Virus record (IMG/VR): IMGVR_UViG_2778261693_000009 | DNA length: 13,613 bases | Strand: one strand, 5' to 3' | Source of the DNA: a virus | Taxonomy: Duplodnaviria; Heunggongvirae; Uroviricota; Caudoviricetes | In this document: positions 9,718 through 11,214 of the stretch, piece by piece | Layout: each line of letters starts with the position of its first letter | Position numbering within the stretch: the first letter of the stretch is position 1 | Notes under the pieces: generated by a model | Database searches by the model: none | What the model was told of the DNA's origin: nothing | What the model saw: the letters and a program-made list of their open reading frames with translations, nothing else | Made by a program: the position numbers and the translations under genes

Positions 9718-9792
9718 TATTAATGGCACTTAAATGTCCGGAATGCGGTACAGTTGCACACGCCAGAACAGCAGCCTATGAAGCTCCGTCAG

Positions 9793-9796
9793 TTAA
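9793..9796. repeat. IS5 target-site duplication, left copy (TTAA)
   Basis: TTAA immediately precedes the left IS5 inverted repeat. Confidence 0.8.
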
Positions 9797-10991
9797 GGAA
9801 GGTGCGAATAAGCGGGGAAATTCTTCTCGGCTGACTCAGTCATTTCATTTCTTCATGTTTGAGCCGATTTTTTCTCCCGTAAATGCCTTGAATCAGCCTA
9901 TTTAGACCGTTTCTTCGCCATTTAAGGCGTTATCCCCAGTTTTTAGTGAGATCTCTCCCACTGACGTATCATTTGGTCCGCCCGAAACAGGTTGGCCAGC
10001 GTGAATAACATCGCCAGTTGGTTATCGTTTTTCAGCAACCCCTTGTATCTGGCTTTCACGAAGCCGAACTGTCGCTTGATGATGCGAAATGGGTGCTCCA
10101 CCTTGGCCCGGATGCTGGCTTTCATGGATTCGATGTTGATGGCCGTTTTGTTCTTGCGTGGATGCTGTTTCAAGGTTCTTACCTTGCCGGGGCGCTCGGC
10201 GATCAGCCAGTCCACATCCACCTCGGCCAGCTCCTCGCGCTGTGGCGCCCCTTGGTAGCCGGCATCGGCTGAGACAAATTGCTCCTCTCCATGCAGCAGA
10301 TTACCCAGCTGATTGAGGTCATGCTCGTTGGCCGCGGTGGTGACCAGGCTGTGGGTCAGGCCACTCTTGGCATCGACACCAATGTGGGCCTTCATGCCAA
10401 AGTGCCACTGATTGCCTTTCTTGGTCTGATGCATCTCCGGATCGCGTTGCTGCTCTTTGTTCTTGGTCGAGCTGGGTGCCTCAATGATGGTGGCATCGAC
10501 CAAGGTGCCTTGAGTCATCATGACGCCTGCTTCGGCCAGCCAGCGATTGATGGTCTTGAACAATTGGCGGGCCAGTTGATGCTGCTCCAGCAGGTGGCGG
10601 AAATTCATGATGGTGGTGCGGTCAGGCAAGGCGCTATCCAGGGATAACCGGGCAAACAGACGCATGGAGGCGATTTCGTACAGAGCATCTTCCATCGCGC
10701 CATCGCTCAGGTTGTACCAATGCTGCATGCAGTGAATGCGTAGCATGGTTTCCAGCGGATAAGGTCGCCGGCCATTACCAGCCTTGGGGTAAAACGGCTC
10801 GATGACTTCCACCATGTTTTGCCATGGCAGAATCTGCTCCATGCGGGACAAGAAAATCTCTTTTCTGGTCTGACGGCGCTTACTGCTGAATTCACTGTCG
10901 GCGAAGGTAAGTTGATGATTCATGATGAACCCTGTTCCATGGCTCCAGATGACAAACATGATCTCATATCAGGGACTTGTTCGCACCTTCC
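9797..10991 (-). mobile_element. IS5 insertion sequence, complete
   Basis: 1195 bp. Terminal inverted repeats GGAAGGTGCGAATAAG (9797..9812) and CTTGTTCGCACCTTCC (10976..10991), 15 of 16 complementary. Flanked by 4-bp TTAA direct repeats. Encodes an InsH-type transposase. Confidence 0.9.
9943..10959 (-). CDS. insH: IS5 transposase InsH (DDE transposase)
   Basis: 338-aa ORF ([46 protein letters not shown]...) that matches the E. coli IS5 transposase as I recall it. Confidence 0.9.
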
Positions 10992-10995
10992 TTAA
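10992..10995. repeat. IS5 target-site duplication, right copy (TTAA)
   Basis: TTAA immediately follows the right IS5 inverted repeat. Confidence 0.8.
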
Positions 10996-11214
10996 ACGCT
11001 CGTGGTATCAGTGCCAGAATCTGGAATGTTCCTGCACATTTACGGCACTGGAGAGTGTGGATAAGATAATCATGAAACCCCGACGCAATGAACAGCTATC
11101 AGACAAAGCACAATCCCCGGAAAAACAACAGCAAACACTTAATCGCTATGGCTCCGCGTCAAAACTTTCAAGCCGTCAGCAGATTCCTGTCTGATTAGAA
11201 AGAACGCCCACGTA

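Follow-up and report, generated by a model that had tools for sequence, protein, structure and literature searches.

An IS5 insertion in the delta gene of a P4-like satellite at argW of Escherichia coli

The window analysed here, which is the whole stretch of 13,613 nucleotides (nt) of the virus record IMGVR_UViG_2778261693_000009, carries a P4-like satellite of Escherichia coli whose delta gene, a member of the Ogr/Delta family of late activators, is interrupted by a copy of the insertion sequence (IS) IS5. The locus raises the question of whether a satellite that has lost this gene could still hijack its helper phage, and whether the loss is a plain accident or the outcome of selection. We regard it, taken as a whole, as highly probable that an IS5 which looks active has recently transposed into a TTAA at delta codons 24-25, an event that would leave the satellite impaired in its use of the helper. 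The event itself, in which an IS has turned a known gene into a pseudogene within an element of a known type, is ordinary, and all of its components are of known kinds.

The interrupted delta gene and its IS5 copy

The delta gene extends over positions 9723-11194 on the plus strand and is split into two fragments. The 5′ fragment (9723..9796, plus strand) comprises codons 1-24 plus 2 nt and encodes the first cysteine pair, C5-P-E-C8; a ribosome-binding site, AGGAG, lies 7 nt upstream of its ATG at 9723. The 3′ fragment (10996..11194, plus strand) begins at the final base of codon 25, ends with the stop codon, and encodes the second pair, C31-Q-N-L-E-C36, and its gene call in the source contig bears a Pfam Ogr_Delta annotation. 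In-silico excision of 9797-10995 joins 9723-9796 to 10996-11194 in a 273-nt in-frame open reading frame (ORF), the product of which has 90 aa and begins MALKCPECGTVAHARTAAYEAPSVKRSWYQCQNLECSCTFTALESV. This restored product matches Pfam Ogr_Delta (PF04606) along the entire model (positions 1-47 of 47) with 57.9 bits, the curated cut-off being 26.3, and PHROG 603 ('transcriptional regulator') at 4e-21. With P2 Ogr it shares 47% identity across residues 3-53 (tblastn, E 9e-9); it also aligns to both halves of P4 delta, where the identity is 45% for the N-terminal domain and 26% for the C-terminal one. Its cysteines 5, 8, 31, and 36 show the C-X2-C-X22-C-X4-C spacing of the family. The preliminary description of this DNA, which had placed the start codon of a small gene at 9723, read an IS5 with its inverted repeats and TTAA duplication inside that gene, and expected excision to restore an Ogr/Delta-like protein in frame, agrees with these data in each of these points, including the coordinates of the IS5.

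The restored protein closely resembles P2 Ogr and the single-domain delta proteins of P4-like satellites (PF04606), with which it has in common the Cys-X2-Cys-X22-Cys-X4-Cys finger and the full-length Pfam match; like the latter, it is also encoded in a late operon together with sid and psu. There are differences as well. Ogr has 72 aa, whereas the restored protein has 90 aa with a 37-aa Gln/Ser/Lys-rich tail, and its gene, being interrupted, does not function in this element. In P4 delta (166 aa) the domain is duplicated in tandem; the present protein has it once. The gene order is sid-psu-delta, as opposed to sid-delta-psu in P4, and this swapped order is found in ~20% of P4-like elements (PMC8628076).

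IS5 entered the gene at codons 24-25 and separates the first cysteine pair of its only zinc finger from the second. As a result, neither fragment can form the finger or encode a working activator, and the delta gene of this element is null. The 5′ fragment now runs into IS5 and stops at 9905, giving a 60-aa chimeric product of 24 native and 36 IS-derived residues. A second chimeric frame was also seen, a 90-aa plus-strand ORF at 10922-11194 that starts inside IS5, antisense to the transposase gene, and continues in frame into the 3′ fragment, keeping only the second cysteine pair; an exact-sequence look-up of its product in a public collection gave no match. In an annotation, these two short frames (9723-9905 and 10922-11194) should be joined into a single pseudogene interrupted by an IS.

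The interrupting sequence is a complete IS5 of 1195 bp (9797..10991), as delimited by sequence slicing and megablast, and lies on the minus strand when the strand of its transposase gene, ins5A, is taken. Its right inverted repeat (9797-9812) reads GGAAGGTGCGAATAAG, and the reverse complement of its left inverted repeat (10976-10991) reads GGAAGGTGCGAACAAG. These terminal repeats are imperfect and 16 bp long, agree at 15 of 16 positions, and start with GGAAGGTGCGAA, as IS5 membership requires. The copy is flanked by a target-site duplication in the form of perfect direct repeats of TTAA (left copy, 9793..9796; right copy, 10992..10995), each recognised from the sequence and from a 4-bp BLAST overlap against empty-site genomes. 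The target motif of IS5, YTAR, has been derived experimentally, and 220 reconstructed IS5 insertions duplicate YTAR tetranucleotides (PMC5009759); TTAA is one of the four YTAR targets, as would be expected of an IS5 insertion. The ins5A gene (9943..10923, minus strand), which was called in the source contig, encodes 326 aa with full-length Pfam matches to DDE_Tnp_1 (4.6e-35) and DUF772 (3.7e-21), and its open frame reaches an ATG at 10959 (338 aa). Over its full length, the copy is 99.9% identical to copies annotated as 'IS5-like element IS5 family transposase' (megablast), and full-length IS5 copies are found in 2477 of 5426 complete E. coli genomes. Judged from its sequence, it looks intact and potentially active. 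It has the length, the imperfect repeats, the Ins5A DDE transposase, and the 4-bp YTAR duplication of the IS5 of E. coli (IS5 family, IS5 group); a single base differs from the reference IS5, and it is simply one more copy. The idea that IS5 targets delta was rejected, because the share of the YTAR sites that lies in delta (3 of the 140 in the element, 2.1%) matches the share of delta in the length (2.3%).

Empty sites and the age of the insertion

The region of psu and delta is uninterrupted in hundreds of complete E. coli genomes, and a homologous delta region without an interruption is present in at least 499 of the 5426. Two complete genomes that carry the same element with an empty site were examined in detail, those of strain 504211 (NZ_CP025865) and strain PRO_A-1407-6W-A_ESBL (NZ_CM136170). 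A BLAST comparison of the window with both genomes gave two collinear blocks, 1-9796 and 10992 onwards, and the subject ranges of the blocks overlap by exactly the 4 bp of TTAA. Since this overlap is the signature of a target-site duplication, the sites in the two genomes are true empty sites. Strain 504211 encodes WP_001185345.1, annotated as an 'ogr/Delta-like zinc finger family protein', which is 100% identical to the restored protein, and its intact allele is 1 synonymous nt apart from the restored gene. In strain PRO_A-1407-6W-A_ESBL, the element is likewise the same, its cargo gene included, and delta is intact. The uninterrupted alleles that the preliminary description had proposed to look for in related strains were in this way found in silico.

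A 301-nt probe for the left junction of delta::IS5 was compared with the 5426 complete E. coli genomes, and no record spans both of its halves. An exact-sequence look-up found the 60-aa chimeric product in the NCBI assembly GCA_002226055.1, on contig NLHF01000038.1, and in the independent Logan assembly of SRR3987974; the contig NLHF01000038.1 is 100% identical to the whole window. Because the same left junction is present in two independent assemblies, the insertion is not a misassembly. The possibility that the feature is an assembly artefact, or that the flanking fragments are unrelated ORFs, has a practically negligible probability and can be regarded as ruled out by the empty-site match and the independent assemblies: the target-site duplication is perfect, the empty sites match exactly, and the restored protein is identical to an annotated one, while nothing was found in favour of such a reading. 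Neither a failure of the restored ORF to align to Ogr/Delta proteins nor unrelated flanking ORFs, both of which had been named beforehand as grounds for giving up the preliminary description, was encountered.

All of the other genes of the element are equal in length to those of its intact relatives; delta::IS5 is the sole lesion. The insertion looks recent because all of these genes are intact, and it could be concluded from the genome comparisons that it is real and specific to one lineage.

Consequences for satellite mobility

Delta is the last gene of the late operon sid-psu-delta. The sid-like gene (8426..9169, plus strand) is intact and encodes 247 aa, with 24% identity to P4 Sid over the full length (E 7e-13) and a match to PHROG 6165 at 8e-93. 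It is followed by an intact psu (9166..9717, plus strand; 183 aa; Pfam Psu, 1.3e-44), the product of which is 29% identical to P4 Psu. The operon ends at a strong intrinsic terminator (11214..11236, plus strand), consisting of a 9-bp stem, AATCCCGGT/ACCGGGATT, and then a T run. Upstream of the sid-like gene lies a Psid-type late promoter region (8336..8391, plus strand) with two TGT-N12-ACA dyads, at 8336-8353 and 8374-8391, which are 38 bp apart. Psid of P4 has two such dyads with the same 38-bp spacing, at 9494-9511 and 9532-9549 of P4, and P4 delta has the same presumed role in the sid operon that this promoter drives. The dyad pair and its spacing are shared with P4 although the Sid proteins are as divergent as stated above. 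The layout of the late promoter is thus conserved and intact. Ogr/Delta activators act on late promoters with a TGT-N12-ACA dyad upstream of the -35 region, and the dyads found here are candidate targets.

The other site relevant to packaging is a candidate cos. Its core (11391..11421, plus strand), placed at the end of homology between related elements, reads GCGAAGCGGGCA and then GGCGTGCGGGGCTGCGCAC, and weakly resembles the cos junction of P4, GCAAAGCGGGCG and then GGCGAGGCGGGGAAAGCAC; when compared with the P4 ends by BLAST, no more than 20 of 24 positions agreed (E = 0.03). When the conserved block that follows delta was compared with 50,697 phage records in a search for distant relatives, the result was one weak match to a Yersinia phage only. 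Conservation across hundreds of genomes ends at about 11416-11420, a break that evidently marks the boundary of a variable cargo hotspot. Between elements with different cargo, homology breaks at about 11416, within the presumed 19-nt cohesive end. In addition, two repeats containing GCATGAAAAC, at 11272-11299 and 11352-11379, precede the cos-like sequence.

Delta is reportedly essential for P4 multiplication, as the title of a report from 1990 has it. On its own, the satellite would no longer activate the late genes of a helper or boost its own late operon. The insertion has also raised its att-to-att length from ~11.9 kb to ~13.1 kb, which exceeds the ~12 kb reported for the Sid-directed small capsid (PMC9122126). 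Helper-mediated packaging and transfer would be strongly reduced, and excision, replication, and cargo expression would be unaffected. As a hijacker of helpers, the satellite is very probably crippled. The increase in size may by itself hinder packaging, and this handicap, from 11.9 to 13.1 kb, is a second obstacle that the preliminary description did not mention. Its claim that the insertion probably disables mobilisation is plausible as far as delta is concerned, delta being the core gene that P4-like satellites conserve best (PMC8628076), and has to be softened in that Ogr of a helper may partly compensate.

Some points weigh against a severe defect. The late genes of P2 and P4 are activated by Delta as well as by Ogr (PMC8628076). 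Trans-activation of a resident P4 by P2 Ogr has been described (PMC7552001), and the loss of delta may thus be offset in part when a P2-like phage infects, as helper Ogr activates P4 late promoters. Moreover, the packaging limit may differ for the helper of this element, and P4-like elements vary in size (PMC8628076). The insertion has left intact the Psid-type promoter with both dyads, sid, psu, the operon terminator, the cos-like site, integrase, alpA, primase, and the cargo gene. Since the insertion spared the promoter, sid, psu, and the cos-like site, an infecting or induced helper could still drive some packaging, and residual mobilisation through helper-encoded Ogr acting on the Psid-type promoter would be possible. 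Carried further, these points lead to the alternative that the insertion is real yet nearly neutral, Ogr of an infecting or induced P2-like helper turning on the promoter and thereby sid and psu, and the element being packaged via cos. The element is now 1.2 kb (~10%) longer, however, with 13.1 kb to be fitted into a small capsid of ~12 kb capacity, and P4-like satellites almost never lack delta, the core component that is absent least often (PMC8628076), which suggests that it is needed. We consider near-neutrality unlikely and prefer a satellite that is probably crippled in its use of the helper. This is not to say that the element is fixed in the chromosome, as had been put forward in the preliminary description. 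That statement goes too far, because integrase, AlpA, and primase are untouched, so that excision should be possible and only transfer would be impaired.

Cargo gene, selection, and element architecture

The cargo gene (11622..13613, plus strand) is intact and encodes 663 aa with an N-terminal GHKL ATPase (Pfam HATPase_c_3, 2.5e-20). This N-terminal domain is GHKL/MutL-like; a weak HSDR_N_2-like match covers residues 476-553, and the protein belongs to PHROG 6203, which has no assigned function. PADLOC reported no system in the protein, only a weak REase_II match on the ATPase domain; NCBIfam gave only sub-threshold matches to the MutL N-terminal domain, and no mention of its accession, WP_032177514, was found in the literature searched. 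The gene is present in only two of the 5426 complete E. coli genomes, at 100% and 91% identity, and the identical copy is that of PRO_A-1407-6W-A_ESBL. It sits in the hotspot adjacent to cos described by Rousset et al., in which the defence genes of P4-like elements adjoin cos (PMC9122126), and is a candidate for a defence system made up of a single gene.

The preliminary description had suggested that IS5 might affect this gene, and the main effect of the insertion could, on such a view, be regulatory, with altered expression of the cargo gene 630 bp downstream. IS5 is known to switch on adjacent operons, fucAO among them; in that case the ins5A promoter forms part of a fusion promoter and reads through the IS (PMC11894529). 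In the present copy, however, ins5A on the minus strand points towards psu and away from the cargo, and a fusion promoter of the fucAO type would read antisense into psu. The interval between IS5 and the cargo gene holds the 199-bp 3′ fragment of delta, the 9-bp-stem terminator at 11214-11236, the conserved cos-like block, and an AT-rich leader of ~200 bp that is specific to the hotspot; in the strain that has this cargo but no IS5, the interval is identical, cargo leader included. Plus-strand transcripts coming out of IS5 would have to pass the delta remnant and then the terminator before they reached the cos-like block and the leader. Because ins5A reads away and the delta terminator intervenes, an effect on the cargo gene finds no support here, and a mainly regulatory role of the insertion is very improbable.

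The presence of the cargo gene also bears on whether the insertion was selected. A knock-out of delta might domesticate the satellite, retain the candidate defence cargo, and prevent the satellite from triggering the lysis genes of a resident helper. Consistent with this, the cargo gene and all else in the element are intact, and defective P4-like elements have been described in which mobility genes are pseudogenised and near-identical, probably functional defence genes are kept (PMC13586616). As in the present element, those satellites have lost a mobility or hijacking gene and retain a hotspot gene that is intact and identical to that of intact elements. They differ in carrying multiple decayed pseudogenes, whereas the lesion here is single, very recent, and caused by an IS; the core gene most often pseudogenised among them is primase, and transposable elements are rare in these compact elements (PMC13586616). 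Against selection, the insertion is a single event, too little to demonstrate it, and 3 of 140 YTAR sites in a gene that makes up 2.3% of the length gives no sign of targeting. Its junction is present in none of the 5426 complete genomes, as opposed to the at least 499 with an uninterrupted homologous delta region, and the gene is only 1 synonymous nt from an intact allele, so that the event is too recent for a signature of selection. We regard selection of the insertion as quite unlikely. Marginally less probable still is the broader proposal in which the lineage keeps the GHKL-ATPase cargo as a chromosomal defence gene and disarms the activation of helper late (lysis) genes, with IS hits in delta as a recurrent route of capture.

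The insertion offers a clean, datable example of how the decay of a satellite begins while its cargo is kept, a process that is known at the population scale (PMC13586616). To marker-based finders, which would still see the fragments of delta, the satellite looks complete. Beyond annotation, its significance is little.

The remainder of the element supports its assignment. The window begins within yfdC, and the tRNA-Arg(CCT) gene argW lies at 1009..1081 on the plus strand; its last 21 nt (1061-1081) are the attL core, TTCGATTCCTGCAGGGGACAC. The attR copy of this 21-nt core lies 13,087 bp downstream in the source contig, outside the window. From att to att, the element measures 13,087 bp with IS5 and 11,888 bp without it, compared to 11,541 bp for the relative in strain 504211 (NZ_CP025865) and 11,624 bp for P4. 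The integrase gene (1267..2541, plus strand) is intact and encodes 424 aa, as shown by a profile match, the same length as the annotated genes in both empty-site strains. Directly downstream is an ORF of 293 aa (2572-3453) with no Pfam, PHROG, or PADLOC match, which is kept in related elements as hypothetical. An AlpA-type regulator (3556-3771; Pfam) and an Icd-like ORF (4132-4308; annotation in relatives and PHROG) follow. Next in order come two ORFs, of 119 aa and 94 aa, to which the PHROG scan assigned no function, a gene for a DUF5375 protein of 127 aa (annotation in relatives and PHROG), and one for a primase of 890 aa with Zn-ribbon, TOPRIM, and DUF927 domains (Pfam). The 94-aa ORF (4692-4976) takes the position equivalent to that of P4 epsilon (Ash), matches an unannotated PHROG, and gave only a non-significant E = 0.033 against epsilon in BLASTP; P4-like variants with no detectable epsilon are common (PMC8628076).

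All six core genes, namely integrase, alpA, alpha-type primase, sid, psu, and delta, are co-located according to Pfam, PHROG, and BLASTP, and the RefSeq annotation of identical elements agrees. The size without IS5, within the ~10-12 kb of such genomes, the att repeats at a tRNA gene, and the variable hotspot beside a P2-type cos are those of a P4-like satellite, with cos assigned only from its position and weak likeness to P4 cos. Collectively, the element is, on the evidence of its gene content and ends, an otherwise intact P4-like satellite integrated at argW of E. coli.

Several repeats were seen along the element. The stretch at 8056-8247, between the primase gene and the late promoter, is rich in iterons, with at least 8 copies of (C)TGTTCCACC / GGTGRAACAG in both orientations; it has the same relative position as the P4 ori and is probably the replication origin of the satellite. 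A 26-nt direct repeat, CAGTTAATTTCATGACATTACAACCT, the copies of which are 88% identical, occurs just upstream of integrase (1168-1193) and just upstream of alpA (3545-3570), corresponding to 1446-1471 and 3823-3848 of the source contig, and a third, weaker copy lies at 1100-1125. These repeats may be shared regulator sites or integrase-arm sites. Finally, in PRO_A-1407-6W-A_ESBL, a second integrative element stands in tandem after the satellite (16139-25446 of the locus examined), with its own integrase, a rolling-circle replication protein, and a SIR2-family gene, and the next 21-nt att core is found only after this second element, 21,381 bp from attL.

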